Part shown: positions 2,248 through 59,149 of the stretch, one piece after another
Numbering within the stretch: the stretch's first letter is position 1
Layout: each line of letters begins with the position of its first letter
Source of the DNA: Gemmataceae bacterium
GTDB lineage: Bacteria; Planctomycetota; Planctomycetia; Gemmatales; Gemmataceae
Assembly: GCA_035266225.1 (NCBI GenBank)
Contig: DATFNV010000336.1
Span: 134-64,133 of the forward strand
Direction: 5' to 3'
Length of the DNA: 64,000 bases
Translations under genes and position numbers: made by a program
The notes under the pieces: generated by a model
What the model saw: only the letters and a program-made list of their open reading frames with translations
Told to the model about the DNA's origin: nothing
The model's database searches: none

Positions 2248-2369
2248 GTTTAGCCGCCGCCCGCTCGTAGTGACCCGATTTATCGGGTCCAGCTCAAACG
2301 GACCCGATAAATCGGGTCACTACGAGCGGGCGGCGGGGAAGAGCGCCGCCCCGAGGGCGGCGGCTAAAC
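2248..2369. repeat. nested palindromic element bounded by GTTTAGCCGCCGCCC ... GGGCGGCGGCTAAAC
   Basis: The outer inverted repeat encloses a 31-bp-arm inner palindrome (GCCCGCTCGTAGTGACCCGATTTATCGGGTC / reverse complement). The right end GCGCCGCCCCGAGGGCGGCGGCTAAAC is shared with the copies at 22976-23004 and 51828-51856. The element abuts the cobO stop codon (2370) exactly. Confidence 0.9.
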
Positions 2370-2972
2370 TCAAAACTCGACGCCCTTCTGCGCTTTGATG
2401 CCGGATCGGTACGGGTGCTTGACGAGCTTCATCTCCGTCACCAGGTCGGCCAGGTCGATCAATTCGTCGCGGGCGTTGCGGCCGGTGACGACGACGTGCA
2501 GCATCTCGCGCTTGCGCCGCAGCTCGTCGAGGACCTCGTCCAGGGGCAGGTAGCCGTGCTTGATGACCACGTTCAACTCGTCGAGAATGACCATGTCGAA
2601 GGACGGGTCGCGCAAGAGCGCGACGCCCCTGTCCCATGCCTTGCGCGCCGAGGCCGTGTCCTGGTCGCGGTCCTGCGTGTTCCAGGTGAAGCCGTCGCCC
2701 ATCGTGTGCATTTCCAGGCCGGGCAGCCGCGCCGCCAGGGCCGCCTCGCCGGTCGGGATGGCGCCTTTGATGAACTGCACGACGCCGACCTTTAGCCCCT
2801 GGCCCAGCGCCCGGAAGGCGAGGCCGAGGGCGGCGGTCGTCTTGCCCTTGCCCGCTCCGGTGTGGACGATGATCAGCCCCTTCTCGCGCGTGGCCTTCGC
2901 CTTGCGCTCCTCGAAGGCTTCCTTCTGTCGCGCCATACGCTGGCGGTGCAGTTCGTCGTTGTCCTGGGTCAT
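2370..2972 (-). CDS. cobO: ATP:cob(I)alamin (corrinoid) adenosyltransferase, CobO/BtuR type
   Basis: ORF 2370..3245 trimmed to ATG 2972 (MTQDNDE...). P-loop GLIIVHTGAGKGKTTAALG, then DMVILDELN and HVVVTGRNA. Confidence 0.88.
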   Translation of the reverse strand: MTQDNDELHRQRMARQKEAFEERKAKATREKGLIIVHTGAGKGKTTAALGLAFRALGQGLKVGVVQFIKGAIPTGEAALAARLPGLEMHTMGDGFTWNTQDRDQDTASARKAWDRGVALLRDPSFDMVILDELNVVIKHGYLPLDEVLDELRRKREMLHVVVTGRNARDELIDLADLVTEMKLVKHPYRSGIKAQKGVEF

Positions 2973-2987
2973 GGATACGCTCCCTCC

Positions 2988-3049
2988 GTTTAGCGGCCGC
3001 TCGCAGAGCGGCGCGGACGAAAGCGCCGCTCTGCGAGCGGCCGCTAAAC
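2988..3049. repeat. palindromic element GTTTAGCGGCCGCTCGCAGAGCGGCGC-loop-GCGCCGCTCTGCGAGCGGCCGCTAAAC
   Basis: Perfect 27-bp arms read directly. The last 6 nt (CTAAAC = GTTTAG on the minus strand) encode the final Val and the TAG stop of cobQ. Confidence 0.9.
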
Positions 3050-4552
3050 GGACTCTTGAATCATCGTTTCCAATCGTGTCATGTCCAGCGCCGCCTCGAC
3101 CACGTCGGCCAACCGCTCTAAGGAGTCGTGGAGCGAGGCGCCGGGGGCGGTCGCCGCATGTCCCCCGGCCCCCTCGCATAGGCTGTCGAGCCACGCCCGA
3201 CGCAGCCCTGTGTTGTGGAACAGCCCGTGCAGGTAGCATCCCCACACCCGGCCGTCGTCGCTCACAGCCCCGTCGGGCAGGCCGGCCCGCTGCCCGTTGC
3301 GCGTGGCGACGTCGAGCCAGGGGCGCCCGCCGGCAGTCCGTCCCACGTGAATTTCATAGCCGTCCACCTCCTGGCCGGCCGCGGCGCTCAACCAACCCGG
3401 CCCCCCCAGCACTTGTGCCTTTACCCGGAAGGTCGCCTTGTTCTCCGCGAATGTCGTTTCGACCGGCAACAGTCCCAGGCCGGCCGACTCCACCACCCGC
3501 GATTCGACACCGCACGGGTCGCGGATCACTCGTCCGAGCAGTTGGTAGCCGCCGCAGATGCCGGCGACCGCGGCGCCCCGGGCGGCCCGCTCGCGGACCG
3601 CCTCGGCCAACCCCGTGGCGCGCAGCCAGCCCATGTCGGCGACGGTACTCTTGGTGCCGGGCAGGATGATCGCGTGCGGGTCGCCCAGCTCGCCCGGCAT
3701 CTGTACGTAGCGCAGGGTGACGCCCGGTTCGGCGATCAGCGGATCGAAATCATCGAAATTCGCGACGTGCGGTAGCCGGATGACCGCGATGTCGATGCCC
3801 CCTCTCGCCGGCGCGGGCACGAACGAATCCAGGGCCACGGCATCCTCCTCCGGGACGGCGAGTGCCGGCAGGTGCGGAATGACTCCCAGCACCGGCACGC
3901 CGCCGCGCTCCTCCAGGATGCGGACGCCGTCGGCGAAGAGCGCCGGGTCGCCGCGGAACTTGTTGACCACCAGGCCGCGGACCAGGGCACGTTCCTCCGG
4001 CTCCAGCAGCCAGAGTGTACCGAGAAGCTGGGCGAAGATGCCGCCGCGGTCGATGTCCCCCGCCAGCAGCACCGGGGCGCGGGCGTAGCGCGCCAGGCGC
4101 ATATTCACGATGTCGAGCGCCCGCAGGTTCAGCTCCGCCGGGCTGCCGGCCCCCTCGATCAGCACCAGCTCGTAAACGGCCCGCAGCCGGTCGAGCGCCG
4201 CCGTGACGACCGGCCACAATGCCTCCTTGCGCCGGTAGTAATCGGCCGCGCGCAGCGTCTGCCAGGGTCGGCCGAGGACGATGACCTGTGAGCGCGAATC
4301 CCCCTCCGGTTTGAGGAGGACGGGGTTCATGTCGGCGGCCGGCTCGATGCCGGACGCCGCCGCCTGGACCGCCTGGGCCCGGCCGATCTCGGCGCCGTCG
4401 GGGCAGACGGCCGCGTTGTTCGACATGTTCTGCGCCTTGAACGGTGCCACCCGCATCCCCCGGCGGGCGAAGACGCGACACAGCGCCGCCGTCAGCAGGC
4501 TCTTGCCGACCGACGAACTGGTCCCTTGGATCATTAGCACCCGCGCGGGCAT
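3044..4552 (-). CDS. cobQ: cobyric acid synthase
   Basis: 502 aa. N-terminal ATPase domain (MIQGTSSSVGKSLLTAALCR...FKAQNMSNN) and C-terminal glutamine amidotransferase (ICGGYQLLG, GYEIH). Confidence 0.92.
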   Translation of the reverse strand: MPARVLMIQGTSSSVGKSLLTAALCRVFARRGMRVAPFKAQNMSNNAAVCPDGAEIGRAQAVQAAASGIEPAADMNPVLLKPEGDSRSQVIVLGRPWQTLRAADYYRRKEALWPVVTAALDRLRAVYELVLIEGAGSPAELNLRALDIVNMRLARYARAPVLLAGDIDRGGIFAQLLGTLWLLEPEERALVRGLVVNKFRGDPALFADGVRILEERGGVPVLGVIPHLPALAVPEEDAVALDSFVPAPARGGIDIAVIRLPHVANFDDFDPLIAEPGVTLRYVQMPGELGDPHAIILPGTKSTVADMGWLRATGLAEAVRERAARGAAVAGICGGYQLLGRVIRDPCGVESRVVESAGLGLLPVETTFAENKATFRVKAQVLGGPGWLSAAAGQEVDGYEIHVGRTAGGRPWLDVATRNGQRAGLPDGAVSDDGRVWGCYLHGLFHNTGLRRAWLDSLCEGAGGHAATAPGASLHDSLERLADVVEAALDMTRLETMIQESV

Positions 4553-4554
4553 GG

Positions 4555-5634
4555 TTACAGCACCTCCCGGATCGCGGTCAGGAGGCGCTCGTTCTCTTCC
4601 GGCCGGCGCGTGCTGATGCGGACGTGCTCGGGCAGGCCGAAGGAGGCACAGTCGCGGACCAGCAGGCCCCGCGTCAGAAGTCGATGCCGGAAGGCGGCGC
4701 CGTCGCCGACGTGGACCAGGAAGAACGGGACCGCCGACGGCAGCGGACGCAGGCCGAGCCCCGTCAGTCCGGCCGTCAGCGCCGCCTTCGCCTCAGCGAG
4801 CATCTCCAGGGACCGGGCCCGGTGCGCCGGGTCGCCGAGGGCGGCTACTCCCGCGGCCTGAGCCAGGGCGTTGACGCTCCAGGGCGATTGCACCCGCCGC
4901 AGCGCTTCGACCAGCGGCCCCGGCCCGACCGCGTAGCCGAGGCGCAGGCCGGCCAGGCCGCAGTCCTTCGTCAGAGAGCGCAGCACCAGGAGGTTCTCTG
5001 CCGCCACGTCGAGGGCCGAGCCGAAGTCCGCGGCGAAGGGCTGGTAGGCCTCGTCCACGACGAATAGCGCCGCCGGATACCGCCGAACCAGCCTCCCGAG
5101 GACGTCGGAACGGAGAACGGCTCCCGTTGGGTTGTTCGGATTGCACACGAACACGACCCGTGGCCGCAGTCGCTCAAGCGCACAGGCGAAGGGCATGAGG
5201 TCCGGCTGAAAATCGTCCTCGGCGCGAGCCTGCCACAGGGTCAGATGGCCCCCCATCAAGCGGGCGGCGCGGACATATTCGCCGTAGGTCGGCCCGAGTA
5301 CCACCACCACATCACCGGGCCGGACGAAGGCCAGCGCCGCCAGGAAAATCAATTCCGAGGCCCCATTGCCGGCGATAAGGCAGCCGATGGCGACGCCCAG
5401 CGATTCGGCCAGCGCCGTGCAGAGAGCCAGCGCCTCGCGGTCGGGGTAGCGGTCCAGAGAAACTTGGATCAGCGCCGCGCGCACGGCTGGCGACGGACCA
5501 TACGGATTGGTGTTGGCGCTGAAGTCGATGACCTTGTCGGGGTCGAGCCCGAGGCACCGCAATTCGCCGAAGTCCAGGGCACCGTGGACGACAGGGGGAA
5601 CACTCCGGATCGGACGACGCGGCTCAGGTGGCAT
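4555..5634 (-). CDS. cobD: threonine-phosphate decarboxylase (CobD/CobC, class I/II aminotransferase fold)
   Basis: ORF trimmed to ATG 5634 (MPPEPRR...), overlapping the cobS stop by 11 nt. Motifs FSANTNPYGP, VCNPNNPTG and SLTKDCGLAGLRLGY (PLP lysine context). Confidence 0.8.
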   Translation of the reverse strand: MPPEPRRPIRSVPPVVHGALDFGELRCLGLDPDKVIDFSANTNPYGPSPAVRAALIQVSLDRYPDREALALCTALAESLGVAIGCLIAGNGASELIFLAALAFVRPGDVVVVLGPTYGEYVRAARLMGGHLTLWQARAEDDFQPDLMPFACALERLRPRVVFVCNPNNPTGAVLRSDVLGRLVRRYPAALFVVDEAYQPFAADFGSALDVAAENLLVLRSLTKDCGLAGLRLGYAVGPGPLVEALRRVQSPWSVNALAQAAGVAALGDPAHRARSLEMLAEAKAALTAGLTGLGLRPLPSAVPFFLVHVGDGAAFRHRLLTRGLLVRDCASFGLPEHVRISTRRPEENERLLTAIREVL

Positions 5635-6442
5635 GGTTTCCTCCCGCCACGAAGAGCAGCAAGGTCGCCACCTCCAGCAACTCGCAGAGGGCGCCGTAGA
5701 CGTCGCCGGTGAGTCCCGGCAGACGGCGCAGCACGAAACGCCCACCGATCCATGTCATCCCCGCCGCCAGCGGGATCGCCAGGAGTGCGCGCCAACCGCC
5801 CGGCACCACGACGGCGATGCCAGCCACGACAGTCCCGGCGAACAAACTGGCGAGCAAGGCTTGCGGCCAGCGTGCGTGATCCTTCATGGCTCGTCCCAGC
5901 CCCTCGGGCCGCCCATAGGGGAAGCCGACCACCGCCACGGCCATCCCCCAGCGGCCGACCACGGGGGCCAGGACCAGCGCCGCCAGTCGCTCCGGGTTGC
6001 CGGCGAGGGCCGCGTACTTGAGCAGCAGCAGGAGAATTCCGCCGATGACGGCGAACGCCCCCGCGCGCTCATCGCGCATGATCCGCAACCGGGCCTCCGG
6101 CGTGTGGCCGCCGAACAGGCCGTCACAGGAATCGAGGAAGCCGTCCAGGTGCAGCGCCCCCGTAACCAGGACCCAGGCGGCCAGCACCAGCGCGGCCGTC
6201 ACGCCCGGCGGGAAGGCCAGTCCCAGGAGCCAATCCAGCCCGGCCAGCAACCCGCCAAGGAGGGCGCCGACCAGCGGGAACCAGCCGACCGACCGGCCCA
6301 GCTCCTTGGGGGAGAATGGCCGGCGCACCAGCGGCAGCACCGTCAGGAATTGCACGGCGGCCGCAAGCCCCAGTCCGCTGCGCTCTTCCTTATCCCCCGG
6401 GCGAGCCGGCGTCGCCTGTTTCTCCTGGAGAGAGGAGGTCAT
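5624..6442 (-). CDS. cobS: adenosylcobinamide-GDP ribazoletransferase (cobalamin synthase)
   Basis: Start at ATG 6442, in ATGA overlap with the cbiA stop. Polytopic membrane protein with LTVLP, FPLVG and HLDGFLDSCDGLFG motifs. Confidence 0.88.
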   Translation of the reverse strand: MTSSLQEKQATPARPGDKEERSGLGLAAAVQFLTVLPLVRRPFSPKELGRSVGWFPLVGALLGGLLAGLDWLLGLAFPPGVTAALVLAAWVLVTGALHLDGFLDSCDGLFGGHTPEARLRIMRDERAGAFAVIGGILLLLLKYAALAGNPERLAALVLAPVVGRWGMAVAVVGFPYGRPEGLGRAMKDHARWPQALLASLFAGTVVAGIAVVVPGGWRALLAIPLAAGMTWIGGRFVLRRLPGLTGDVYGALCELLEVATLLLFVAGGNHAT

Positions 6443-7821
6443 GCCCAACCTCCCTCGGTCCCCCCGCATGCCGCTACGAAGCGATCAGCCAGCCCCGGCC
6501 GCGCGGCGAAATGCAGGTGGACATACGATGCCCTCAGGCTGCCCAGCCGAGCGCCTTCCGGCCGCGCGTCCCCTTCCCCCGTGCGCGGCAGAAGGAACCA
6601 GGCCGGCGGCAGGTCGGTTGGCCGGTCCTCCCAGGCGGAGTAATGGAACTCGTGGCCGCGCACCGTCTCGCCCCCGGGAAGCAGCCACGAATCTCCCGCC
6701 ACCCGCGCCAGCCGGTAGCCGAGCGTCAGCCGGCCGCTCATGACCGAGCGCCCCGGCAGCAGGCCGACCATCTCATGTCGCCGCCCGTCGCAATCCACGA
6801 TCGCCTGAGTCAGGTACATCAGTCCGCCGCATTCGGCATAGATCGGCAGCCCGCGCCGATGGGCAGCGTGCAGGGCGGCGTGCAGGGGGCGGTTTGCCGC
6901 CAGGGCCTCGGCGTAGACCTCTGGGAAACCGCCGCTGAGGATGATCGCGCCCGTCCCCGCCGGCAGCATCGTGTCATTCAGCGGGCTGAAGAAGACGACA
7001 TCGGCACCGGCCGCGCGAAGCAGGTCCAGGTTGTCCTCGTAAGTGAACTGGAACGCCTCGTCGCGCGCCACCCCGATCACCGGACGGTTCCCGGCCGGCC
7101 GGCATTCGGCGTCAGGCGTCGTAGGCAAGGCTGGTGCCTGTTGGGCGATGGCCAGGAGCTGATCGATGTCCAGGTACTGGGCCACGACGTCACCGGCGGC
7201 GCGCACGAACTCCTCCCAGCGACCGGGCTCGCGGGTCGGGATCAGGCCAAGGTGCCGTTCGGGGATGCACAGCGCTTCGTCGCGCGTGACCCAGCCGAGG
7301 ACGGGGAGCCCGGTGGCCTTCGCAACGACCGAGGCGACTCCGCGGCCGTGTCCTTCCCCCGCGACGCGATTGATGATGAATCCGGCCAGCGGAACCCTCT
7401 CGTCGAAGCGCCGGCAGCCGAGAGCCACGGCGCCGGCGCTGCGTGCCATCTTCGAGGCATCCAGCACGACGATGACGGGCGCCCTGAGCAGCTTCGCCAC
7501 TTCGGCGGTGCTGCCGCACTCGTCGTCGTAATCGGCGCCGTCGTACAGCCCCATGACTCCCTCGATAATCGCAATATCGGCATCACGCGCGGCGCGGCTG
7601 AACAGCGAGCGGACGCGCTCCGGCGGCAGCATCCAGGTGTCGAGGTTGCGGCACGGCCGGCCGGCGGCCAGCGCATGGTAAGTCGGGTCGATGTAATCGG
7701 GGCCGACCTTGAACGGCTGGACGGTCAGTCCGCGCCGGCGCAGGGCGGCGATGATGCCCGTCGTCAGCGTGGTCTTGCCGACTCCGCTGTGCGTCCCCGC
7801 GATGACCAAGCGTCCTCCCAC
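6439..7821 (-). CDS. cbiA: cobyrinate a,c-diamide synthase
   Basis: ORF 6439..8031. There is no ATG upstream of the P-loop, so I chose GTG 7821, which is preceded by GGGGATGGGGGGA. Motifs VIAGTHSGVGKTTLTTG, PFKVGPDYIDP and the amidotransferase ECGGLMYL. Exact start is uncertain. Confidence 0.85.
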   Translation of the reverse strand: MGGRLVIAGTHSGVGKTTLTTGIIAALRRRGLTVQPFKVGPDYIDPTYHALAAGRPCRNLDTWMLPPERVRSLFSRAARDADIAIIEGVMGLYDGADYDDECGSTAEVAKLLRAPVIVVLDASKMARSAGAVALGCRRFDERVPLAGFIINRVAGEGHGRGVASVVAKATGLPVLGWVTRDEALCIPERHLGLIPTREPGRWEEFVRAAGDVVAQYLDIDQLLAIAQQAPALPTTPDAECRPAGNRPVIGVARDEAFQFTYEDNLDLLRAAGADVVFFSPLNDTMLPAGTGAIILSGGFPEVYAEALAANRPLHAALHAAHRRGLPIYAECGGLMYLTQAIVDCDGRRHEMVGLLPGRSVMSGRLTLGYRLARVAGDSWLLPGGETVRGHEFHYSAWEDRPTDLPPAWFLLPRTGEGDARPEGARLGSLRASYVHLHFAARPGLADRFVAACGGTEGGWA

Positions 7822-7844
7822 AGTGGGATCCCCCCATCCCCAGG

Positions 7845-8195
7845 TCAGGCGACCAATTGTTTCTCCTCCAGCAGCTTCAGACACAGCGAGCGCAGCGCTG
7901 CCAGTTCCCGCTGAAACTCGCGCTGCGCTTCCTCGGCTGGCAGCGCATCGAACAGGTCCGGCAACTGGACACCGCGACTCATGATCTCGTCGGCCGTCTT
8001 GTCCCGCAATCGTTTGCGGACGAACGAGCAATTCTCGGCATTGAAGAAGACCCGCAGCGCATTGCTGGCGCCGATCAGGCCGTTGGCCAACAGGTCCGTG
8101 ATGCCCAGGCTCAGCAGGCCGAAGAGGGCCAGTTGCTGCCTTCCCGTGCCGGCCGAGGCCGCGAGCAAGGCTTCAAGGTGGATGCCGTCGTTCAT
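7845..8195 (-). CDS. hypothetical 116-aa protein inside the cob operon
   Basis: ATG 8195 (MNDGIHLEALLAAS...LKLLEEKQLVA). Fills the gap between the chlI/D fusion and cbiA on the same strand. Visibly lower GC than its neighbours. I recognise no motif. Confidence 0.5.
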   Translation of the reverse strand: MNDGIHLEALLAASAGTGRQQLALFGLLSLGITDLLANGLIGASNALRVFFNAENCSFVRKRLRDKTADEIMSRGVQLPDLFDALPAEEAQREFQRELAALRSLCLKLLEEKQLVA

Positions 8196-8244
8196 GCGCG
8201 TACACGTCGGGGTACAGGTGCAGTGGCATGCCACTCTCGGGGTA

Positions 8245-10215
8245 TTAACGGACCGTCTGTCGCACCTTCAGTACCAAGGATTCCTCTGACAACCCATCCA
8301 GCGGCAGGCACTCGGCGCCGAGCGCCTGCGCCAGTTCGGCCCCGCGCCCCAGGCGGACGAATCCCGCATCCGCATCCAGCACCAGCGCCGGCAGCCCTTC
8401 TGCAACCAGTTCCCGCGCCGCCGCGAGCGCCTGCTGCCACGGATCACCGGTCGTATCGGGCAAGGGCACATTGGCCTTGCCGTCGCTTAGCACCACCAGC
8501 AGGGCCGGCACCTCGGGCCTGGCTCGCCGGGCACGACGGACCACCTCGCCGGCCGTGACCAGGGCGTGCGCCAGCGGCGTGCGCCCCCCGGTGGGCAACT
8601 CGCGCAGAGAACGGTCGGCCAACTCCACGCTTCCGGTCGGGGGCAGCAGCACCTCGGCGAGTGGCCCGCGGAAGGCGATGACGCCGACCTCGTCGCGCTG
8701 CTCGTAAGCGCTCTGCAACAGGCCGAGCACCGCCCCCTTAACCAGTTCCATCCGTCGCCGCGCCGCCATCGACCCCGAGGCATCGACCGCGAACAGGATG
8801 AGCGTCCCCGTCCGTCCGGCGCGCTCCTTGCGATGCAGGTCAGCCCGCTCGATCACCGGCCGCCCATCGGCCTGTCCCCCGCGCAGGACGGCGGCGCGGA
8901 TCGTGGCATCGACGGCCAGGTCGGTCGCCTTCTCGTCGGGGACGGCTCGGACGTAGTGACCGCGCTCGCGGGTCGGCGTCGGGTTGCGCCGGCCTCGCGG
9001 CGTCGAGCAGGAGACGCCGGCCGGCGCCGCCACCTCGATCCGCCGTACAGGCTGGGGCGCGGCCGGATCGAAGACACGCTCGCCCTCCATGTTCTCCGCA
9101 TCTTGCGGGGATGACTCGGAAGGCGGCGCCGTCTCTCCTTCCTCCTCCGCGGGCGATTGCAGACGCGCCAAGGAGTCGTCGAGTCGCTGGCGGTCCAGGT
9201 GCGGCTGCTCGAACGGCCGCCGGCGCTGGCGGTGCGGCAGGACCAGCTCCGCGGCCCGCCTGACGTCGTCCGATGTCGCTGCCGTGCGTCCGTCGAGGGC
9301 GGCCAGCGCCCGTGCCGTCTTATGCATCACGATGTCGGCGCGCAGGCCATCGACCTCAAACTCGCAGCACAAGCGGCTGATGACCGCCAGCAGTGCGTCA
9401 TCCAGGACCACGCGCGGCAGCCGTTCCCGCGCCTCCGCGATGCGGCGGCGCAGCAGCTCCTGCTCGCCTTCCCAGCGGGCGGCGAAGGCCGTGGGATCGG
9501 ACTCGAACGCCAGCCGGCGGCGCACCACCTCGGCCCGCACCTCGGGATCGCGCGGGCCAACCACCTCGACCATCAGGCCGAAGCGGTCGAGCAGCTGCGG
9601 CCGCAGGTCGCCCTCCTCGCGGTTCATCGTGCCGATCAGCAGGAACCGAGCCGGGTGCGCGGCCGAGATCCCCTCGCGCTGCACCGTGTTGACGCCGAGC
9701 GCGGCCGCGTCGAGCAGCACGTCCACCAGATGATCGGGGAGCAAATTGACCTCGTCGATATATAGGATGCCGCGGTGCGCCGCCGCCAGCAGCCCCGGCT
9801 GAAAGGCGCGCCGCCCCTCCCGCAGGGCGCGCTCGAAGTCGAGCGTGCCGAGAACGCGGTCCTCGGTCGCTCCGAGCGGCAGGTCGATGAATGGTACAGG
9901 TGCCTCGACGGCACGGCGCTCGGGGATGGCGCCGCAGTGAGGACATTCCGGCCAGGGCGCGTCTGGGTCGCAGCGGAACGGGCAGCCCTCGACCAGGCGC
10001 AGCGGCGGCAGCAGGGCGCGCAGGGCGCGGGCGGCGGTGCTCTTGGCGGTTCCCTTCTCGCCGCGCACCAGCACGCCGCCGATGGCCGGGTAGACGGCGT
10101 TCAAGAGCAGCGCTGTCTTGAGCTGCTCCTGACCGACCAGTGCGCTGAAGGGATATTCCACGGATGACTCCCGCCGCTTGCCGCGACCATTAGGCTCTGT
10201 CTGAGAAATCGCCAT
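8245..10215 (-). CDS. ChlI-ChlD fusion (AAA+ ATPase plus vWA), presumed ATPase partner of CobN
   Basis: ATG 10215 (MAISQTEPNG...). Has a ChlI-like region YPFSALVGQEQLKTALLL..VLVRGEKGTAKST, an acidic/Pro linker, and a C-terminal vWA/MIDAS region LILFAVDASGSM. Confidence 0.85.
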   Translation of the reverse strand: MAISQTEPNGRGKRRESSVEYPFSALVGQEQLKTALLLNAVYPAIGGVLVRGEKGTAKSTAARALRALLPPLRLVEGCPFRCDPDAPWPECPHCGAIPERRAVEAPVPFIDLPLGATEDRVLGTLDFERALREGRRAFQPGLLAAAHRGILYIDEVNLLPDHLVDVLLDAAALGVNTVQREGISAAHPARFLLIGTMNREEGDLRPQLLDRFGLMVEVVGPRDPEVRAEVVRRRLAFESDPTAFAARWEGEQELLRRRIAEARERLPRVVLDDALLAVISRLCCEFEVDGLRADIVMHKTARALAALDGRTAATSDDVRRAAELVLPHRQRRRPFEQPHLDRQRLDDSLARLQSPAEEEGETAPPSESSPQDAENMEGERVFDPAAPQPVRRIEVAAPAGVSCSTPRGRRNPTPTRERGHYVRAVPDEKATDLAVDATIRAAVLRGGQADGRPVIERADLHRKERAGRTGTLILFAVDASGSMAARRRMELVKGAVLGLLQSAYEQRDEVGVIAFRGPLAEVLLPPTGSVELADRSLRELPTGGRTPLAHALVTAGEVVRRARRARPEVPALLVVLSDGKANVPLPDTTGDPWQQALAAARELVAEGLPALVLDADAGFVRLGRGAELAQALGAECLPLDGLSEESLVLKVRQTVR

Positions 10216-10362
10216 CGGGATGCTATACTGCTTGCTTCCCGACCACTGGCTCGCGGGGGGCGAGTCCGAAGTTGAAAACTGTCGTAGGTGAAAGAGGCGG
10301 TCGCGGGATAGCCGCACGCGTGCCGCACGTTCGGCGGCCTATGTGGGCCTACGAACCCCCCA

Positions 10363-13300
10363 TCACGGGTTTCCCGACAGCGCCTGGACGGGCGCCCGGT
10401 CGCCCCGCGCCTCCAGCATCTCCTCACTCTTCAGCAGCGCCTCCCGCAGGTCCGCCAGCGTCTCCGCGCCCGGCGCCGCCCACATCCCCCGTTGCGCCGC
10501 CTCCAGCAACCGCTCGGCCACCGCGTGCAGCGCCCACGGATTACTGCGGGCGAAGAACTCCTGCATGGCCGGGTCCAGGGCGTAGGCCTGCGCCACCTGC
10601 TCGTACATCCAATCCTCCGCCACCCCTGCCGTGGCGTCGTAGCCGAACAGGTAATCGACGGTCGCCGCCAATTCCAGACCGCCCTTGTAGCCGTGCCTGG
10701 TGATACCCTCCAGCCACTTCGGGTTGACGACGCGCGTGCGGAAGACGCGCAGCGCCTCCTGCTTCAGGTCGCGCACCGCCGGCCGCGCCGGGTCGTGCGT
10801 GTCGCCGAAGTAGTGCCGCGGCTGCCGGCCGGTCAGGGCGCGGATGGCGGCAATCATGCCTCCGTGAAATTGGAAATAGTCGTCGCTGTCGAAGATGTCG
10901 TGCTCGCGGTTGTCCTGGTTGTGCAGCGCCACCTGCACCTCGCCCAGCCGCCGGCGGAAGGCGTCGCGCGCGTCCACCCCCTGGGCGTCGGCCGCGTAGG
11001 CGTAGCCGCCCCAGTTGACGTAGGTCTCGGCGAAGTCGGCGTCGTCGCGCCAGTTGCGCTCATCGATCAGCGGCAGCAGCCCCGCCCCGTACGAACCGGG
11101 CTTCGAGCCGAAGATGCGGTAACGCGCCTGCCGCTCCGGCTCCGGCAGCCCGGCCGCGACGTTGGCCGCCAGGTCGGCGAGGTAGTGCTTGCGCACGAAG
11201 TTCCGCTCCGGCGGCTCGTCGAGCAGGACGACCGCCTGCACGGCATCGTCGAGTAATTTGATGAGGTGCGGGAAAGCGTCGCGGAAAAAGCCGCTGATGC
11301 GCACCGTCACGTCGATCCGCGGCCGACCGAGTGCGTCCGGCGGCACCACCTCGACGCCGACGACCCGGCGGTTCTCCTTCTGCCACACCGGCCGCACCCC
11401 GAGCAGCGCCAACACCTCGGCCACGTCGTCGCCGTGGGTGCGCATGGCGCTGGTGCCCCAGGCACTGATGCCGACCGTCTCCGGGTAGGCGCCGGTCTCG
11501 GCGCGGTAGCGCTCCAGTACCTCGCGGGCCAACTCCTGTCCCACCTGCCACGCCGCGGCCGACGGCAGGGCGCGCGGATCGACGGCGTAGAAGTTGCGGC
11601 CGGTCGGCAGGACGTGGGCCATACCGCGCGTCGGCGCCCCGCTCGGCCCGGCGGGGACGTAACGTCCCTCCAGAGCGGCAAGGAGATTCTCGATCTCGTC
11701 CGTCGTCTGCCGCAGCGCCGGCACCAGGCGCTCGCAGACGAAGGACAGCACGGCGCGCACGTCGGCCCCGTCCCCGAGTCCGGGGACCGTGTGTGCGATG
11801 ACTGCCTCCACGGCGTCCGCCCGGAAGTCGTGCCGCTGCAGGAGCGCCAGCAGGTGCCGGCACAGGTCGTCGATGGTTTCCAGCGCGTCGGCGTGCGTCA
11901 CCAGCGGGCGGTCGGCCAACCGGGCGAGCGCCGGCGGCACCACCGCGAGAGGCCGGCCGCGCTCCGCGAGCAGCATGTCGAGGTCGAGCCCAAACAGTCC
12001 GGCCACGGCGGCGCGCAGGCTCGGCACGTCGAGATTGGGGATGCGCGTCAGCGCTTGAAGGAGCCCGACCATCTGCTCGCCCTCGGGCACCTGACCCAGG
12101 ACGTGCAGGCCGTCGCGGATCTGCGCCCCCGCCAGCTCGCACAAATAGCCGTCCAGTTCCTGGACGAGGTGCGACACCTCGCGGCCGCGCATCTGCGCCA
12201 GCGTCACCGGGGTGCCGTCGGCGGTGACGGCGTCGTCCCACTCGTGCGTGTGGCCGTCCTCGCCCTTCTGCATCAGATATTTCAGGTCGTCTTCGAGGTG
12301 GGCGTGCCGGATCAGGTCCCAGATTTGCTGCTGGACCAGCGGCATCTTCGACGGGTCGAGCAACTCCACCTGGTAATACTCGTCCACGAGTTGCATCAAC
12401 TCGGCCAATTCGCCGTGGGCGTCGGCCGTCGTCATCGGCGGCGTCAGGTGGTCGATGATGACGGCGTGGCCGCGGCGCTTGGCCTGCGCCCCCTCGCCCG
12501 GGTCGTTGAGGATGAAAGGGTAGAACAAGGGCAGGTCGCCCAGGAAGGTGTCGGGGTAGCAGTCCGCCGACAACCCGACCCCCTTGCCCGGGAGCCATTC
12601 GAGCGTGCCGTGCTTGCCGAGGTGGACGATCGCATCGGCTCGCCAGACGTCGCGCAGCCAGCGGTAGAGGGCGTAGTAGTTGTGCGGCGGCGGCAGGTCG
12701 GGCTGGTGGTAGATGGCGTTCGGGTCCATGCCGTGGCCGCGCGGCGGCTGCAGGGCCACGAACACGTTGCCGAAGTCGAGGCCGGCCAGGGCGACGTGGT
12801 CGTCGTGGACGTATGCCTCCCCCGGCGGCGCTCCCCATTGTCCCGTCATCTGGCGCCGTTGCCCCTCCGGGAGGTCGTCGAACCAGCGCCGGTACTCGGC
12901 GGTCGAGACACGGCCGGCGGCGTTGGCCAGCTGCCCGGCCGTCAGGAGGGTTTCGTCGTAGGAACAGCGGTCGATGAGCGCGTGGATCAGGGCGTCGCCG
13001 TCGGGGGGCAATTCGCCGACGTGGTAACCGGCGTCGCGCAGTGCCGCCAGGACGTACAGCAGCGAGGCCGGGGCGTCGAGGCCGACGGCGTTGCCGACCT
13101 TCGCCGCCTTGCCCGGCGAGTTGGTGAGGACGAAGGCCACGCGCTTGTCGCGGTTCGGCTTGCGCCGCAGGGCCGCGAAGCGCAGGGCCAACCCCGCCAG
13201 GCGGCTGACGCGGTCGAGCACCGGACGGTAGATTGCAGATTGCAGATTGCAGATTGCAGATTGAGCTTCTGCAATCTGCAATCTGCAATCTGCAATCTGC

Positions 13301-14763: not shown

Positions 14764-14825
14764 GCCGCTTGCGGCTTAGCGTTCGCGCCATCCTTCGATG
14801 GCGCGAACGCTAAGCCGCAAGCGGC
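14764..14825. repeat. palindromic element GCCGCTTGCGGCTTAGCGTTCGCGCC-loop-GGCGCGAACGCTAAGCCGCAAGCGGC
   Basis: 26-bp arms. Same family as 42808-42867 and 58159-58218. Lies between the second mini-ORF and the cobN start. Confidence 0.9.
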
Positions 14826-15087: not shown

Positions 15088-15264
15088 GCGATCGGTCCTC
15101 CCTGGCCGCCGCACGACGGCGGCGAGCCGGCAAACTATGCACCTCGGCGGAACTGGCTGGGGGAGGAAGAAAGGCGGTGGCGAAGTGAGGCCGTCATCGG
15201 CCACGTGAGCCGGTCCGGAGTCCGCACACCGTTGCTCCCGTCCCCTTGCCGCGAGGTTACGTCA

Positions 15265-15400
<136 letters not shown>

Positions 15401-15461
15401 CACTTACCGTAGACGAGTCTATCGAGCGGCCGGACGAAGGCAACGGCGCGGCGCGCGGAAA

Positions 15462-43999: not shown

Positions 44000-44424
44000 A
44001 TCCGATCCCGCTGCACCACTACCTCGTTGTCGGCGCCATCCTCTTCGCCCTCGGCGCGATCGGCTTCCTCGCCCGCCGCAACCTGATCGTCATGTTCCTG
44101 TCGGCGGAAATGATGCTGCAGGGGGTCGCGGTCAACCTGGTGGCCTTCGCCCGCTACCGCGGCAACCTCCAGGGGCAGGCGTTCACCCTGTTCATCCTCA
44201 CCGTGGCGGCGTGCGAGGCGGCCATCGCCCTGGCCCTGATCCTGATGCTCTTCCGCCGCCGCGGCTCGCTCGACGTCAGCTTGTGGCAGGAGCTGCGCGA
44301 GCCGGGTCAGGAGCCGACCGTGGACGAGGAGCCGCTGCCGCCGCCGCCGAAGGAGGAGCCTCTGCCGGAACTGACACCGTCGGGCTTCGAGCCCCCGGCC
44401 CGCGAGGAGACCAGCCATGTCTAA
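43996..44424 (+). CDS. nuoK: NADH-quinone oxidoreductase subunit K with a Pro/Glu-rich C-terminal tail
   Basis: 142 aa. Motifs LVVGAILFALGAIGFLARRNLIVMFLSAEMMLQGV and TVAACEAAIALALIL. ATGA overlap with nuoJ. Confidence 0.9.
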   Translation: MNPIPLHHYLVVGAILFALGAIGFLARRNLIVMFLSAEMMLQGVAVNLVAFARYRGNLQGQAFTLFILTVAACEAAIALALILMLFRRRGSLDVSLWQELREPGQEPTVDEEPLPPPPKEEPLPELTPSGFEPPAREETSHV

Positions 44425-46366: not shown

Positions 46367-46371
46367 GGGCG

Positions 46372-46465
46372 CTCTGTGATTTATCGTTTCGCGCTCGCTT
46401 GATCCTGCCGGGGAGAAGGGACTCTCCGGCAGGATCAAGCGAGCGCGAAACGATAAATCACAGAG
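46372..46465. repeat. 94-nt palindromic element with perfect 40-bp arms
   Basis: CTCTGTGATTTATCGTTTCGCGCTCGCTTGATCCTGCCGG-14 nt loop-reverse complement. Shares the GATTTATCGTTTCGCG module with 51784-51856 and 56427-56499. Confidence 0.95.
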
Positions 46466-46477
46466 CCGAGGTTTGTC

Positions 46478-48178: not shown

Positions 48179-49782
48179 ACAATCCCGAGACGATCGACGC
48201 CCTGACAAACTGGGTGCCGCTGGTGCTGCCGGAAATCCTCCTGGTGGCCGCCGCGTGCGTCCTCTTCCTGGGCGGCACCTTCCGGGCCGGCCGCAATCTC
48301 TGGGGCAGCGTGGCCCTGGCCTCGCTGGCCGCCGCCGCCCTGGCCGCCTGGCTGACGCCCGGCCCGGCCGACCCCGGTCCCGCGCAACTCTACGCCGCCC
48401 CGGTGCTGCTCGACAGCCTGGCCGTGCTGGTCAAGGGGCTCGCCCTGGCCGGCGGCGGCGTCCTGGTCCTGCTCGGCTGGGACGAGGTGCCCGAGAAACA
48501 GGCGGCCGAGTATCACGCCTGCCTCCTGGTCATCGTCGCGGGGACCAGCCTGACCGGCATGGCCAACGAGCTGATTACGCTCTTCCTCGCCCTGGAGCTG
48601 ATCTCTATTCCGACCTACATTCTCCTCTACCTGCCGCGGCACGACAACGCGGCGCAGGAAGCGTCGCTGAAGTACTTCCTGCTCAGCGTCTTCTCGTCGG
48701 CGCTGATGCTCTTCGGCTTCAGCTACCTCTACGGCGTCGGCGGCACCACCAACATCCCGGCGCTGACGCGGGCGCTGGCCACGGTGGAGTCGGGGGCGCT
48801 GCCGGCGGCGGCGCTGGTCGCGCTGGTCATGGTGGTGGCCGGCCTCGGCTTCCGCATCGCGGCGGTGCCGTTCCACTTCTACGCCCCGGACGTGTACCAG
48901 GGGACCACGGCGGGGGCCGCCGCCCTGCTCGCCTTCATCCCCAAGGTCGCCGGCTTCGTCGCTCTGGTGCGCGTGCTCGGCTTCGCCCCGGAGGGGAGCC
49001 TCCTGGAGGCGCTGACCCTGGGCCGGGCCAAGGTCGTGCCCGGCCTGCTGCTGGGGTCGCAGGTCTCGACGCTCTTCTGGATCCTGGCGGCGGTGACGAT
49101 GACGCTCGGCAACGTGCTGGCGCTGTTGCAGGACAACCTCAAGCGCTTGCTGGCCTATTCGAGCGTGGCCCACGCCGGCTACATGCTCATCGGCCTGGCG
49201 GTGGCGCCGTACCTGCGCGGCGTGGACTCGCCGGGGGGCGTCGAGGCACTGCTGTTCTACCTGGCGGCCTACGGGGCCATGACCATTGGCGCCTTCGCCG
49301 TGATTTCGTACCTGAATACGCCGCAGCACCCGATCGAAACGGTGGACGACCTCGCCGGCCTGAGCCGCAGTCATCCGGGTGTGGCGCTGCTGATGATGAT
49401 CTTCCTGTTCAGCCTGATCGGCATTCCGTTGACCGGCGGCTTCGCGGGCAAGTTCCTGCTCTTCTGGGGGGCGATGTCGGTGCCGGTCGATGTCGGCGAC
49501 CCCAGTTCGCTGGAGCAGGCGCGGCTGTTCCGCATCCTGGCGCTGATCGGGGTGATCAACGCGGCCGTCGGCGCCTGGTACTATCTGCGCATCGTGGCGG
49601 CGATGTACCTGCGCAACCCGCTGCGGCCGGCGCAGGGGGGGCGCCGCTGGCCGGCGCTGGCGACGATCGGGATTTGCGCCGTGCTGACCCTGGCGCTCGG
49701 CGTGCCGCCGCTGTTGGGACTGCTGGTCGGCGCCGCTCGCGACGCGGTCCCGCACGTCCCGCAGCTGCGGGCCGAACGGTAA
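48175..49782 (+). CDS. nuoN: NADH-quinone oxidoreductase subunit N
   Basis: GTG 48175 in GTGA overlap with the nuoM stop (VNNPETIDAL...). Motifs LALELISIPTYILL, FRIAAVPFHFYAPDVYQG and YSSVAHAGYML. Confidence 0.92.
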   Translation: MNNPETIDALTNWVPLVLPEILLVAAACVLFLGGTFRAGRNLWGSVALASLAAAALAAWLTPGPADPGPAQLYAAPVLLDSLAVLVKGLALAGGGVLVLLGWDEVPEKQAAEYHACLLVIVAGTSLTGMANELITLFLALELISIPTYILLYLPRHDNAAQEASLKYFLLSVFSSALMLFGFSYLYGVGGTTNIPALTRALATVESGALPAAALVALVMVVAGLGFRIAAVPFHFYAPDVYQGTTAGAAALLAFIPKVAGFVALVRVLGFAPEGSLLEALTLGRAKVVPGLLLGSQVSTLFWILAAVTMTLGNVLALLQDNLKRLLAYSSVAHAGYMLIGLAVAPYLRGVDSPGGVEALLFYLAAYGAMTIGAFAVISYLNTPQHPIETVDDLAGLSRSHPGVALLMMIFLFSLIGIPLTGGFAGKFLLFWGAMSVPVDVGDPSSLEQARLFRILALIGVINAAVGAWYYLRIVAAMYLRNPLRPAQGGRRWPALATIGICAVLTLALGVPPLLGLLVGAARDAVPHVPQLRAER

Positions 49783-49788: not shown

Positions 49789-49829
49789 GCCGCTTGCGGC
49801 TTCGCAGGGCATGCGAAGCCGCAAGCGGC
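49789..49829. repeat. palindromic element GCCGCTTGCGGCTTCGCA-GGGCA-TGCGAAGCCGCAAGCGGC
   Basis: 18-bp arms. Lies between the nuoN stop and the kinase-like gene. Confidence 0.9.
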
Positions 49830-50813: not shown

Positions 50814-50851
50814 TCGGCTCGCCCTCTTGGAGCAGGGCGATTTTCGCTTGA

Positions 50852-51783: not shown

Positions 51784-51856
51784 GTTTAGCGGCCGCCGTC
51801 GATTTATCGTCTCGCGAAACGATGAATCCGCGCCGCCCCGAGGGCGGCGGCTAAAC
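51784..51856. repeat. palindromic element GTTTAGCGGCCGCC...GATTTATCGTCTCGCGAAACGATGAATC...GGGCGGCGGCTAAAC
   Basis: Near-identical in architecture to 22934-23004. Lies between pstB and phoU. Confidence 0.9.
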
Positions 51857-54573: not shown

Positions 54574-54614
54574 GTCGCTTGCGGCTTCGCACGTCCTGCC
54601 AAGCCGCAAGCGGC
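54574..54614. repeat. degenerate palindrome GTCGCTTGCGGCTTCGCA ... GCCAAGCCGCAAGCGGC
   Basis: An imperfect member of the GCCGCTTGCGGC family. Lies between two co-directional minus-strand genes. Confidence 0.7.
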
Positions 54615-56407: not shown

Positions 56408-56426
56408 CCGATGAACTCACTTGAGC

Positions 56427-56499
56427 GGCGGCCCACGATTCATCGTTTCGCGACACGATGAGATTTATCGTTTCGCGACACGATAAATCGTGGGCGGCC
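56427..56499. repeat. palindromic element with a duplicated ATCGTTTCGCGACACGAT module
   Basis: GGCGGCCCACGATTCATCGTTTCGCGACACGATGAGATTTATCGTTTCGCGACACGATAAATCGTGGGCGGCC. Lies between convergent genes. Confidence 0.85.
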
Positions 56500-56514
56500 T
56501 CCCAACCGAGACGA

Positions 56515-58077: not shown

Positions 58078-58158
58078 GACGCCGGCCCTCTGTGCCGAAA
58101 GGGACAACCGAGCCGAAGCGGATTACCACGCGAGGGCAAACCGCTCAAGATCAACCCG

Positions 58159-58218
58159 GCCGCTTGCGGCTTAGCGTTCGCTCCGTGAGAGTTGCGCGAA
58201 CGCTAAGCCGCAAGCGGC
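58159..58218. repeat. palindromic element GCCGCTTGCGGCTTAGCGTTCGC-loop-GCGAACGCTAAGCCGCAAGCGGC
   Basis: Same family as 14764 and 42808. It is the only copy located in a divergent promoter region (radical SAM gene / mutM). Confidence 0.9.
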
Positions 58219-58283
58219 ACGAACCGATGTGGTGCGAATTGCCGGTCTCGCCTATAATCACGGCCACGTTGGGGAGGTGGTGC

Positions 58284-59111
58284 GTGCCCGAACTGCCCGA
58301 AGTCGAAACCGTGGTGTGCGACCTGCGGCCGCTGCTGGTCGGCCGACATCTCGGATCGGTCCGGGTGAGCAAGCAGCGCCTGCGCCGCCCCTGGTCGAAG
58401 TCGTGGGCGGCCCTCCTGGACGGCCGGCGCGTCGAGGCCGTGGCCCGCCAGGGGAAATGGATCGTCCTGGCCCTGGACGAAACGGTGCGCCTCGTCTTTC
58501 ACCTGGGGATGACCGGCCAGCTGAGGGTGGTATCCGCCGCGGAACCCGTGGCGAAGCACACGCACCTGGTGATCGACCTGGACGGCGGCCAGGAACAGCT
58601 GCGCTTCCGCGACGTGCGCCGCTTCGGCAGCGCCACGGTCTTCCCGGATGGGCCGGCGCTGGCCCGATTCCTCAAACAATCGGGCCTGGGGCCCGAGCCG
58701 TTGGACCTCGACGCCGCGACCTGGCGCCAGAAACTGGGTCGCACCGACCGCTGTCTGAAGGCGGTCCTCCTCGACCAGCGCGTGGTGGCCGGCGTGGGCA
58801 ACATCTACGCCGACGAGTCGCTCTTCGAGGCACGCTTGCACCCCGCGCGGAAGGCGAGCGGCCTGAGCGCCGCCGAGGTTGGGCGGCTGGGCCGGGCGGT
58901 GGCGACGGTGCTGCGGCGAGCCATCGAGCGGCGCGGCTCGACCATCCGCGATTACGTCGGCGCCTCGGGCCAGCGCGGCGGCTACCAGGACGAGTTTCGC
59001 GTGTACAAGCGCACGGGCCAGTCCTGCCCCCGCTGCGACACCCCGATTGAGGCGGTGCGCCTGGCGGGGCGATCGACGCACTATTGTCCCAACTGTCAAC
59101 GGAGGCAGTAG
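58284..59111 (+). CDS. mutM: formamidopyrimidine-DNA glycosylase
   Basis: GTG 58284, preceded by GGGGAGGTGG. Canonical (M)PELPEVE N-terminus, GNIYADESLF, and the zinc finger CPRCDTPI...HYCPNCQ. Confidence 0.9.
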   Translation: MPELPEVETVVCDLRPLLVGRHLGSVRVSKQRLRRPWSKSWAALLDGRRVEAVARQGKWIVLALDETVRLVFHLGMTGQLRVVSAAEPVAKHTHLVIDLDGGQEQLRFRDVRRFGSATVFPDGPALARFLKQSGLGPEPLDLDAATWRQKLGRTDRCLKAVLLDQRVVAGVGNIYADESLFEARLHPARKASGLSAAEVGRLGRAVATVLRRAIERRGSTIRDYVGASGQRGGYQDEFRVYKRTGQSCPRCDTPIEAVRLAGRSTHYCPNCQRRQ

Positions 59112-59114
59112 TCC

Positions 59115-59149
59115 GTACTGAGTACTGAGTACTGAGTGCCGAGTACTGG
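59115..59149. repeat. tandem heptamer (GTACTGA)x3 GTGCCGA GTACTGG
   Basis: Read directly. Lies between the mutM stop and the histidine kinase ATG. Confidence 0.9.

Follow-up and report, generated by a model that had tools for sequence, protein, structure and literature searches.

Introduction

The closest described relatives of the repeats discussed here are the repetitive extragenic palindromic (REP) elements that carry a GTAG or CGTC tag and are mobilised by REP-associated tyrosine transposases (RAYTs). These elements prefer unidirectional and convergent gaps between genes, where they lie less than 20 bp from the end of the upstream open reading frame (ORF); their tag gives a TAG stop codon, some copies are intragenic and in frame, and dimers are found (Di Nocera 2013; PMC3733652). 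Several REP families can coexist in one genome, that of the planctomycete R. baltica included (PMC3733652), and RAYT classes have been recognised in Planctomycetes, as has a REP of P. mikurensis with a CTTG loop (Quentin 2018; PMC6006769). The present work deals with the palindromic repeats found in the gaps between genes along 64 kb of DNA from a Gemmataceae bacterium (assembly GCA_035266225.1, contig DATFNV010000336.1), a stretch that is called the window throughout. It is argued that these gap repeats are probably REP-type elements moved in trans by RAYTs, and not dedicated terminators.

The gene calls used for the window are those of the Joint Genome Institute (JGI), with Pfam matches, for the peat-metagenome contig Ga0311301_10000782 (122,958 bp), of which the window is a part. 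With the loci L012 and L009 added, about 80 kb of this contig can be read; labels of this kind (L009, L012, L046, L067, L127 and so on) denote sequence loci from the same contig, from related genomes or from metagenomes.

Repeat families and their anatomy

The initial annotation of the window listed 21 repeat loci, about 1.4 kb in all, and divided them into four families. All 21 are present, and the total is close to our own count of 23 elements covering 1,494 bp. The families listed are real, and a fifth one, family C (GATTTATCGTTTCGCG), had passed unrecognised, as had two loci, at 46371-46466 between nuoL and nuoM and at 56416-56510. In the 64-kb window the 17-nt sequence that defines family B (the B 17-mer, GCCGCTTGCGGCTTMGC) has 18 matches at up to two mismatches, 16 of them exact, against 0.15 expected; the A motif GTTTAGCGGCSGC has 11 matches at up to one mismatch, and the C motif 10 against 0.24 expected. 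At least 11 A ends, 18 B units and 10 C units are thus present, all far above the level of shuffled sequence, and exact B 17-mers reach a density of about 0.28 per kb.

The tagged families follow a general plan, in which a small hairpin adjoins a conserved unpaired (single-stranded) tag. The B unit is a hairpin of 4-5 bp, GCCG-CTTG-CGGC, followed by the tag TT(A/C)GC, which on the opposite strand reads GCKAA and stands 5' of the hairpin; its conservation ends abruptly at the 5' G, and base frequencies show no T enrichment on either flank. The A unit has its tag, GTTTAGC, on the 5' side of the hairpin (as GTTTAGC(G/C)G), the stems of which vary between copies with pairing kept (CCGC/GCGG, CGGG/CCCG, GGC/GCC, CCGCCC/GGGCGG) around a loop that is TCTGCGA or CGA. 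Family C serves mainly as the inner palindrome of A-type composites.

A unit may stand alone, pair with an inverted copy in a doublet (REPIN) that folds into a long hairpin, or be nested in another unit. The inverted doublets of the window comprise eight of B, three clean ones of A and one of the GTAG unit described below; the same arrangement is seen in other genomes, and every doublet folds as a very stable single-strand DNA hairpin (z -6.5 to -20). Nesting takes several forms: B2 doublets lie in outer arms at 20217 and 22840 (a third copy is at L009 15216-15300), a B doublet lies in TCTGTTGCGCAA/TTGTGCAACAGA arms at 24212, and C palindromes lie within A ends at 22933, at 51784 and in the nuoL|nuoM gap of locus L127.

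The GTAG twin hairpin and its probable RAYT

The likeness to REP elements and bacterial interspersed mosaic elements (BIMEs) that the initial annotation had drawn was well chosen, since the twin hairpin in the nuoD|nuoE gap is a canonical GTAG-tagged REP doublet. Its unit occurs in at least 120 metagenome contigs; the foot is GTAG on the 5' side or CTAC on the 3' side in nearly all the contigs listed, and doublets are frequent, these being the features by which GTAG-tagged REPs and REPINs are defined (PMC3733652, PMC3116915). The link with a transposase is observed directly in locus L252, where a GTAG unit stands at both ends of a 226-aa Y1_Tnp gene (Pfam PF01797, above cut-off): one unit lies just ahead of the start, another supplies the TAG stop, and a second doublet follows farther downstream, which is the arrangement known as a REPtron.

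A flanking direct repeat of more than 7 nt, the null level, is absent in 37 of 38 distinct GTAG doublets, as the chemistry of Y1 transposases predicts. The sole case among the 38 is the doublet of the window itself, which is bordered by an exact 14-nt direct duplication, GGAGCTGGACCGGT, at 36045-36058 and 36119-36132, and this duplication recreates the end of nuoD together with the ribosome-binding site and start of nuoE. Target-site duplication as a general feature was considered and rejected on account of this uniqueness, and the B and A copies in the window have no flanking duplication on inspection. Several doublets are seated within other palindromes, as seen in the flanks of GTAG doublets and, in the window, at 24212 and 20217; this suggests insertion into hairpin loops, which would explain the nesting.

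A side observation concerns genes for Ser/Thr protein kinases, in which GTAG-REP doublets are found on three unrelated metagenome contigs (L235 1860-1947, L208 1180-1245 and L274), all of them between the HRDLKPxN catalytic loop and the DFG motif.

Families A and B and their probable RAYTs

The repeats had been described as sequence families of this genome's own. This description is not supported, as the B unit, the GTTTAGC tag and the GTAG unit are all widely shared outside it. In one scan of a genome collection the exact B 17-mer was found in metagenome-assembled genomes (MAGs) of Thermoguttaceae, Gemmataceae, Fimbriiglobus, Singulisphaera (Isosphaeraceae), Pirellulales, Lacipirellulaceae, Phycisphaerae and Tepidisphaerales, with the same doublet architecture in these other planctomycetes. 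The window has its exact A and C sequences in common only with the close relatives L127 and L128.

Every fetched locus was screened with the HUH...Y protein motif, and Y1_Tnp genes were found in two of the loci that had been selected for B, L067 and L046. In L067 (Phycisphaerales JB063) the gene encodes a protein of 216 aa, and its start lies 12 nt past the end of a B doublet; a homologue in L302, from a Gemmataceae MAG (GCA_035939715.1), is preceded by a B doublet at 18 nt from its start and followed by one B unit at 15 nt from its stop. The 216-aa RAYT has 2,961 homologues, 60-80% identical across Phycisphaerales, Isosphaera and Gemmataceae, that is, in both classes of the phylum, and many of them are named 'REP element-mobilizing transposase RayT' by JGI. 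A conserved and probably vertically inherited RAYT of this kind would explain the identity of the 17-mer across the phylum. It was also observed that the RAYT gene of L067 contains an exact B 17-mer in frame (7745-7761), encoding SRLRLS. Its reading as a REP insertion was rejected, as it aligns with a normal conserved SR..rL segment and is probably no insertion.

The A architecture leads to a different transposase. Locus L046 carries a Y1_Tnp gene that is 30% identical to the 216-aa clade and is flanked on both sides by units of the form AGCCGGTCGC-GGGC-GACCGG-GCTAAAC, which on the opposite strand are GTTTAGC followed by a hairpin, i.e. the architecture of family A. Homologues of the corresponding clade, RAYTs of about 197 aa, number 1,293; they come from Pirellulales, Tepidisphaeraceae and Phycisphaerae and are often named RayT. 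One gene of this clade, in L306 from a Pirellulales MAG, is closely followed by two GTTTAGC-hairpin units in inverted orientation to each other. The background of such units is only 13 in 796 kb, so that their presence beside a RAYT is unlikely to be due to chance; their stems differ between genomes, and the tag is therefore the conserved part, as in GTAG REPs. Viral contigs and plasmids yielded no further RAYT contexts.

In the literature searched, the B 17-mer, the GTTTAGC tag, the links to the two RAYT clades and the palindromic heptamer arrays of planctomycetes (see below) are not described. Nothing relevant was retrieved for the motifs GCCGCTTGCGGC, GCCGCAAGCGGC and GTCAGGCTGGAAAGCCTGAC, nor was any paper on planctomycete heptamer repeats found.

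Position relative to genes

Among gaps of at least 25 nt, family elements are present in 16 of the 28 co-directional, three of the six convergent and two of the seven divergent ones. The claim that almost every gap behind a stop codon is filled was therefore too strong, the fraction being 19 of 34, and the rule of 20 loci out of 21 directly after a stop, in co-directional or convergent gaps, is overstated: the array at 13221-13305 lies in frame within cobN, and the doublet at 58159-58218 lies in a divergent gap. Divergent regions are not free of repeats either, since 31810-32047 holds a degenerate B relic at 31867-31897. The nuo operon had been credited with eight of the listed loci; only seven are in it or at its end, and the number eight is reached with the overlooked locus at 46371.

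An element in a co-directional gap begins between -16 and +11 nt from the stop that precedes it and leaves 7-24 nt to the start that follows, and so accounts for most of the gap. In five genes the stop codon itself is part of an element tag: nuoD (GTAG), nuoF and nuoH (TTAGC), and nuoG and the gene at 3044-4552 (GTTTAG). The heptamer insert in cobN adds about 20 aa in a loop, relative to the solved CobN structure (PDB 7c6o).

Beyond the window, the position of B relative to genes was measured in 99 of the other loci that carry it, those with usable gene calls. In these 99 loci the density of B per kb of gap is 0.72 in co-directional, 1.12 in convergent and 0.30 in divergent gaps, and 0.045 per kb in coding DNA; B is about 14-fold denser in intergenic than in coding DNA. 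The median start of B is about 8 nt past the upstream stop, and this holds for downstream gaps of hundreds of nt as well.

The elements also affect gene calling. The JGI start of a HEAT-repeat gene, at 29893, reads through an A element, and the ATG at 29836, whose GGGGGA ribosome-binding site directly follows the element, is likelier; a mis-annotation induced by the element is the more likely account of this gene start.

Turnover at orthologous gaps of the nuo operon

Three relatives of the window (L127, L128 and L129), whose NuoH is 80-85% identical to that of the window, allow the nuo loci to be compared gap by gap, and the turnover between them can be read directly. At nuoD|nuoE, L127 and L128 have an empty GTGA overlap of stop and start where the window has the REP doublet. 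The nuoI|nuoJ gap has no element in L127; in L129 it contains one B unit, and in the window two, as a B1 doublet. At nuoG|nuoH, the window and L127 have A doublets with different cores, L129 has another palindrome and L128 has none. At nuoC|nuoD the window and L127 both have a heptamer palindrome of GATTGCA, where L128 has a palindrome of C type, and an unrelated palindrome at nuoE|nuoF is found in L128 only. The single B at the nuoF stop is present in three genomes and has decayed in two of them with no compensating changes.

The same turnover is written into a protein. Past the sequence ...GALALR, the NuoH tails (42141-42161 in the window; proteins P0001-P0041) are hypervariable and are translations of different palindromic elements: RPLAA* corresponds to B read forward, AACGLA...AKPQA to a B doublet read through, and ARSASEG.PSLALRA and RPLQRVGL to other palindromes. 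Such gain, loss and replacement fits mobile or rapidly regenerated DNA and not a conserved cis-element. Variants mirrored in both arms of a palindrome, as in the heptamer array of L127 and in its B2 doublet with TTTG loops in both units, point to palindromisation or arm-to-arm correction at the DNA level, or else to selection for pairing.

Proposed mechanism

Taken together, these observations can be accommodated in the following scheme. Several REP-type families would have colonised the gene-end gaps of this Gemmataceae genome, and three of them (GTAG, A and B) would each belong to a different clade of single-copy HUH-Y1 transposase (RAYT, Pfam Y1_Tnp), as the contexts in other genomes indicate. 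A cognate RAYT, encoded elsewhere in the genome, would recognise the tag and hairpin in single-stranded DNA, and would copy or move the element with no target-site duplication. Copies would persist where the harm is small, namely at or after stop codons, in co-directional and convergent gaps, in hairpin loops and, now and then, in frame in tolerant protein loops; and, as the tags contain TAG or TAA, an element landing in the last codons of a gene would supply a new stop. We infer that a RAYT of each clade is present and active in this genome.

Several points weigh against this scheme. The search for a RAYT that the initial annotation had suggested succeeded in other genomes, where the three families flank Y1_Tnp/RAYT genes, and yielded no such gene in the 80 kb of readable contig, so that for this organism the cognate enzymes are presumed. 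A tag of the form GT[AG]G at the 5' foot is present in the twin hairpin (GTAG...CTAC) and not in A (GTTTAGC) or B (TT(A/C)GC, on the 3' side), so that A and B lack the tag of canonical REPs. The links of B and of A to their RAYTs come from two independent genomes each, and B is common enough in gaps for the probability of chance flanking, roughly 0.01-0.1, not to be negligible. No enzyme is linked to family C, to the outer-arm composites or to the heptamer arrays. Selection on a binding site is another possible reason why the B copies of the window are nearly perfect (16 of 18 exact). Finally, the 14-nt duplication at nuoD|nuoE is not predicted by insertion of the RAYT type; it may represent a rare event that was selected at an overlapping gene junction.

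Alternative explanations

In E. coli, REPs affect mRNA decay, termination or coupling. They reportedly stabilise mRNA, according to work attributed to Newbury and Higgins in 1987 and to Liang, Rudd and Deutscher in 2015, and are said to lower expression if no more than about 15 nt separates them from a stop codon. The strongest rival is that the hairpins of the window are RNA elements of the host, selected in place as terminators or attenuators, as blocks to 3' exonucleases or as tuners of coupling, and not mobile. This is unlikely, although it would account for the position of the elements right past stop codons and just before the next ribosome-binding site, for their very high predicted stability, and for the fact that the nuoC|nuoD, nuoG|nuoH and nuoL|nuoM gaps hold some hairpin in several relatives despite sequence change; the role of E. 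coli REPs as mRNA stabilisers also speaks for it.

The role of terminator, which the initial annotation had favoured among others, is not supported: the elements lack a T-run, and eight of them lie inside one operon. Sites that resemble terminators stay at the level of chance (11 found for 9.8 expected, and 16 for 9.3), with one weak match overlapping an element, and in the 40 kb scanned the only convincing sites with a hairpin and a T-run are at 33159-33190, past the gene before nuoA, and at 50819-50850, after the APH gene. These two have unique sequences, which indicates that the genome uses canonical terminators that are distinct from the repeats. Single B units lie in sense orientation relative to the flanking genes in 14 cases and in antisense in 11, with no strand bias; together with the lack of T-runs, this means that the elements are not canonical terminators and not obviously strand-specific RNA elements. 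In Rfam, only a cobalamin riboswitch passes the gathering score in the window, and at E <=1 the elements match nothing except eukaryotic miRNA-precursor models, far below threshold, as generic long hairpins would. The idea of RNA elements kept in place is further opposed by the orthologous gaps that are empty (nuoD|nuoE in L127 and L128, nuoG|nuoH in L128, nuoI|nuoJ in L127), by the decay of the single copy at nuoF with no compensation, by copies in coding DNA and in divergent gaps, and by the RAYT genes that are flanked by elements in other genomes. Under the RAYT scheme, effects on mRNA decay or stabilisation, termination or translational coupling would be plausible by-products of a placement 0-12 nt past a stop and near ribosome-binding sites.

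It is far less probable that family B is a DNA-uptake or protein-recognition sequence, comparable to the DNA uptake sequence of Neisseria or the uptake signal sequence of Haemophilus and kept by selection or by biased uptake. The density of the exact 17-mer, its sharp boundaries, its conservation across the phylum and the frequency of inverted pairs after genes are what such a sequence would display, but B flanks RAYT genes in two genomes, its orthologous single copies decay, and its density is far lower in most other genomes, with few extra matches per 8-kb locus. To our knowledge, natural competence has not been established for Planctomycetes, which also counts against this explanation.

Just as improbable are miniature inverted-repeat transposable elements (MITEs), i.e. 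deletion derivatives of DDE-type insertion sequences with target-site duplication, for which the inverted terminal units around variable cores and the 14-nt direct repeat flanking 36057-36114 could be cited, but which are at odds with the absence of duplication in 37 of 38 GTAG doublets and in the B elements of the window, with units of 17-60 nt, below the typical length of MITEs, and with the lack of a transposase between distant inverted B units or of a recurrent transposase family near B in 114 loci.

Related candidates were rejected as well. An insertion-sequence-like parent was sought in L062 and L028, where distant inverted B units enclose ordinary genes and no transposase. A recurrent transposase near B was not found in the 114 loci, whose 634 clustered proteins gave only common families of planctomycete paralogues. 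The attC site of integrons (RYYYAAC on the 5' side, GTTRRRY on the 3' side) has the order opposite to that of family A (GTTTAG...CTAAAC), and A lies within the housekeeping operons cob, nuo and pst.

Heptamer arrays

The heptamer arrays consist of GATTGCA at 13221 and 34729, and of GTACTGA at 59115 and at L012 19166-19204. A period of 7 is the commonest among tandem repeats in 0.8 Mb of planctomycete loci, with 109 arrays, many of them inverted pairs of unrelated heptamers. These arrays are treated as separate from the tagged families, as they have no tag and no enzyme or mechanism has emerged for them; they share the gap niche and the palindromic habit, and constitute a phenomenon like that of short tandemly repeated repetitive (STRR) sequences, a habit at the level of the phylum.

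Cyanobacterial STRR heptamer arrays were reportedly described by Mazel and colleagues in 1990. Arrays of TAACTGA are found in Beggiatoa and cyanobacteria, and GTACTGA resembles this heptamer; we know of no sequence relation between the heptamers of the window and STRR1-3. The likeness to STRR lies in tandem heptamer arrays dispersed in intergenic DNA, and the difference is that the arrays here are often inverted pairs that form perfect hairpins with mirrored variants, and that one is in frame in cobN. The comparison with STRR and with the highly iterated palindrome HIP1 that the initial annotation had made is apt as to form for STRR and is not supported for HIP1, whose sequence GCGATCGC occurs once. 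Shuffled sequences lead one to expect 5.9 copies, and this scarcity, the opposite of HIP1 enrichment, could be due to the avoidance of a restriction-type site.

Seven loci (L139, L133, L140, L040, L088, L101 and L110), on planctomycete and 'viral' contigs, have one forward B unit with a G-rich heptamer array immediately upstream of it. An association between heptamers and B was rejected: by a rough estimate, it is no commoner than for any two intergenic features.

Comparison with known systems

With the GTAG/CGTC REP-RAYT systems (PMC3733652, PMC3116915, PMC6006769) the repeats of the window have in common the hairpin with a tag, the inverted doublets, several families per genome, the placement at the 3' ends of ORFs, the use of TAG as a stop, the in-frame copies, the REPtron and the lack of target-site duplication. 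They differ in that the A tag is GTTTAGC, 5' of the hairpin, and the B tag is TT(A/C)GC, 3' of a very short hairpin; in that B is kept as an exact 17-mer in two classes, the usual range of a described REP being one species or genus; and in the one window copy with a 14-nt flanking duplication. The BIMEs of E. coli are likewise mosaics of nested palindromic units in extragenic space within operons, but no Y or Z REP sequence and no linker of the integration host factor type were identified here, and the modules (A, B, C and the outer arms) are unrelated. Rickettsia palindromic elements share the habit of in-frame palindromes in conserved genes, seen here in cobN, in NuoH tails and in kinase genes; their sequences and host phylum are unrelated, and most copies in the window are extragenic.

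Coordinates of the elements and neighbouring genes

The individual elements are collected in Table 1.

Table 1. Repeat elements of the window, with position, strand where assigned, make-up, setting and predicted DNA fold.
Element	Position	Strand	Make-up	Setting	DNA fold
GTAG REP doublet (REPIN)	36057-36114		GTAG-GTCAGGCT-TTCC-AGCCTGAC...GTCAGGCT-GGAA-AGCCTGAC-CTAC, also read as GTAG-GTCAGGCTTTCCAGCCTGAC...GTCAGGCTGGAAAGCCTGAC-CTAC	nuoD/nuoE gap	-30.4 kcal/mol, z -11
B1 doublet	14764-14825		GCCGCTTGCGGCTTAGCGTTCGC...GCGAACGCTAAGCCGCAAGCGGC	11 nt past stop of 41-aa ORF, 12 nt ahead of cobN start	
B2 doublet in outer arms	20217-20308		doublet (20236-20279) in arms CCGTAACAACACTGTCTTC/GAAGACAGTGTTGTTACGG, then CTAAAC	convergent gap	
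GTTTAG and B2 doublet	22840-22932		same kind of outer arms; copy of the 20217 composite, 84% over 94 nt		
A+C composite	22933-23004		(T)TTAGCGGCCGCC, C palindrome GATTGATCGTTTCGCGAAACGATCAATC, CGCGCCGCCCCGAGGGCGGCGGCTAAAC		
B doublet in outer inverted arms	24212-24284		doublet (24224-24272) in arms TCTGTTGCGCAA/TTGTGCAACAGA	convergent gap	
Single B unit	38705-38724	+		nuoF stop is the TAG of the preceding TTAG; orthologous copies in L127 and L128 decayed	
Single B unit and half C unit	42146-42177	+	half C unit CGCGAAACGATAAACA	encodes NuoH C-terminus RPLAA and stop; kept in L129	
B1 doublet	42808-42868			nuoI/nuoJ gap	-39.2 kcal/mol, z -13.9
B2 doublet	49789-49829			6 nt past nuoN stop	
B2 doublet	54574-54614		one mismatch per unit	co-directional minus-strand gap	
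B1 doublet	58159-58218			divergent gap 58078-58283	
Degenerate B relic	31867-31897		74% to CGAACGCTAAGCCGCAAGCGGCC	divergent gap	
A-type composite	2248-2369		GTTTAGCCGCCGCCC...GGGCGGCGGCTAAAC; encloses perfect palindrome, 37-nt arms, CCCGATTTATCGGG core		
A doublet	2988-3049		27-nt arms GTTTAGCGGCCGC-TCGCAGA-GCGGCGC	minus-strand GTTTAG is last codon and TAG stop of gene 3044-4552	
'Double-foot' single A unit	29849-29885		GTTTAG..GGC-TCTGCGA-GCC..CTAAAC		
A doublet	40883-40932		perfect 50-nt palindrome	its GTTTAG is last codon and stop of nuoG	
A+C composite	51784-51856		93% identity to 22934-23004		
C-type long palindrome	46371-46466		45-nt arms, 98% complementary	nuoL/nuoM gap	-59.7 kcal/mol, z -20
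Degenerate A ends	56416-56510		around tandem and inverted C units	convergent gap	
Inverted pair of GATTGCA arrays	13221-13305	-		in frame inside cobN (10363-14751, minus)	
Inverted pair of GATTGCA arrays	34729-34832		3.6 and 9.9 copies	fills nuoC|nuoD gap	
GTACTGA array	59115-59148	+	4.9 copies	between fpg and histidine kinase gene	

The window has a G+C content of 68.5% and no tRNA genes, and its NuoH is NCBI protein HKI34102.1, from a Gemmataceae MAG. Three blocks of genes stand out: the cobalamin-biosynthesis operon (cobN to cbiX, 1-14751, minus strand), the nuo operon with its 14 subunits (33241-49782, plus strand), and a pst/phoU/response-regulator group, plus other genes. Strain polymorphism could not be read from ten other contigs that carry proteins of the window, as they are 100% identical to it and hence uninformative.

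Three further observations concern these genes. The cobalamin riboswitch (Rfam RF00174, 52 bits) lies at 15260-15405 on the minus strand, upstream of two tiny ORFs and the cobalamin-biosynthesis operon. Between nuoE and nuoF there is a toxin-antitoxin-like DUF433/DUF5615 pair (36639-37344), and as the nuoE-nuoF gap measures 13-70 nt in L127 and L128, the pair is a lineage-specific insertion in the nuo operon. Between nuoF and nuoG, a conserved 162-aa ORF with no Pfam match (38739-39227) is present in all relatives examined and is duplicated in L127.

Significance

The kind of system described here is already known as a form of bacterial selfish DNA; the sequence families are new, and the understanding of the kind is unchanged. 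REP/REPIN-RAYT systems are the foremost case of replicators that live long in bacterial genomes and are inherited vertically, and almost all the work on them has been done in Proteobacteria. In a single Gemmataceae genome at least three REP families coexist and set the length of most gaps of the nuo and cob operons; five genes take their stop codon from an element, and the C-terminal tails of NuoH are element sequence in translation. Two of the families have tags other than GTAG or CGTC and are tied, in other genomes, to well-conserved RAYT clades. For annotation, this means that many 'hypervariable C-termini' and mis-called starts in planctomycete genomes are derived from elements.

For evolution, an exact 17-mer that extends across the phylum offers a way to date and test the co-inheritance of REPs and RAYTs. 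A tentative and rather doubtful extension is that the B 17-mer and the GTTTAGC tag may be the partners of two RAYT clades co-inherited across Planctomycetota (Planctomycetia and Phycisphaerae). If this were true, no REP-RAYT pairs described so far would be more deeply conserved, and GTAG and CGTC would be joined by two further 'tag' superfamilies, the third and the fourth; such depth would imply that the pair had been recruited to some role for the host where genes end. The phylum would then also possess, in its palindromic heptamer arrays, another source of hairpins at gene ends that works by a different mechanism.

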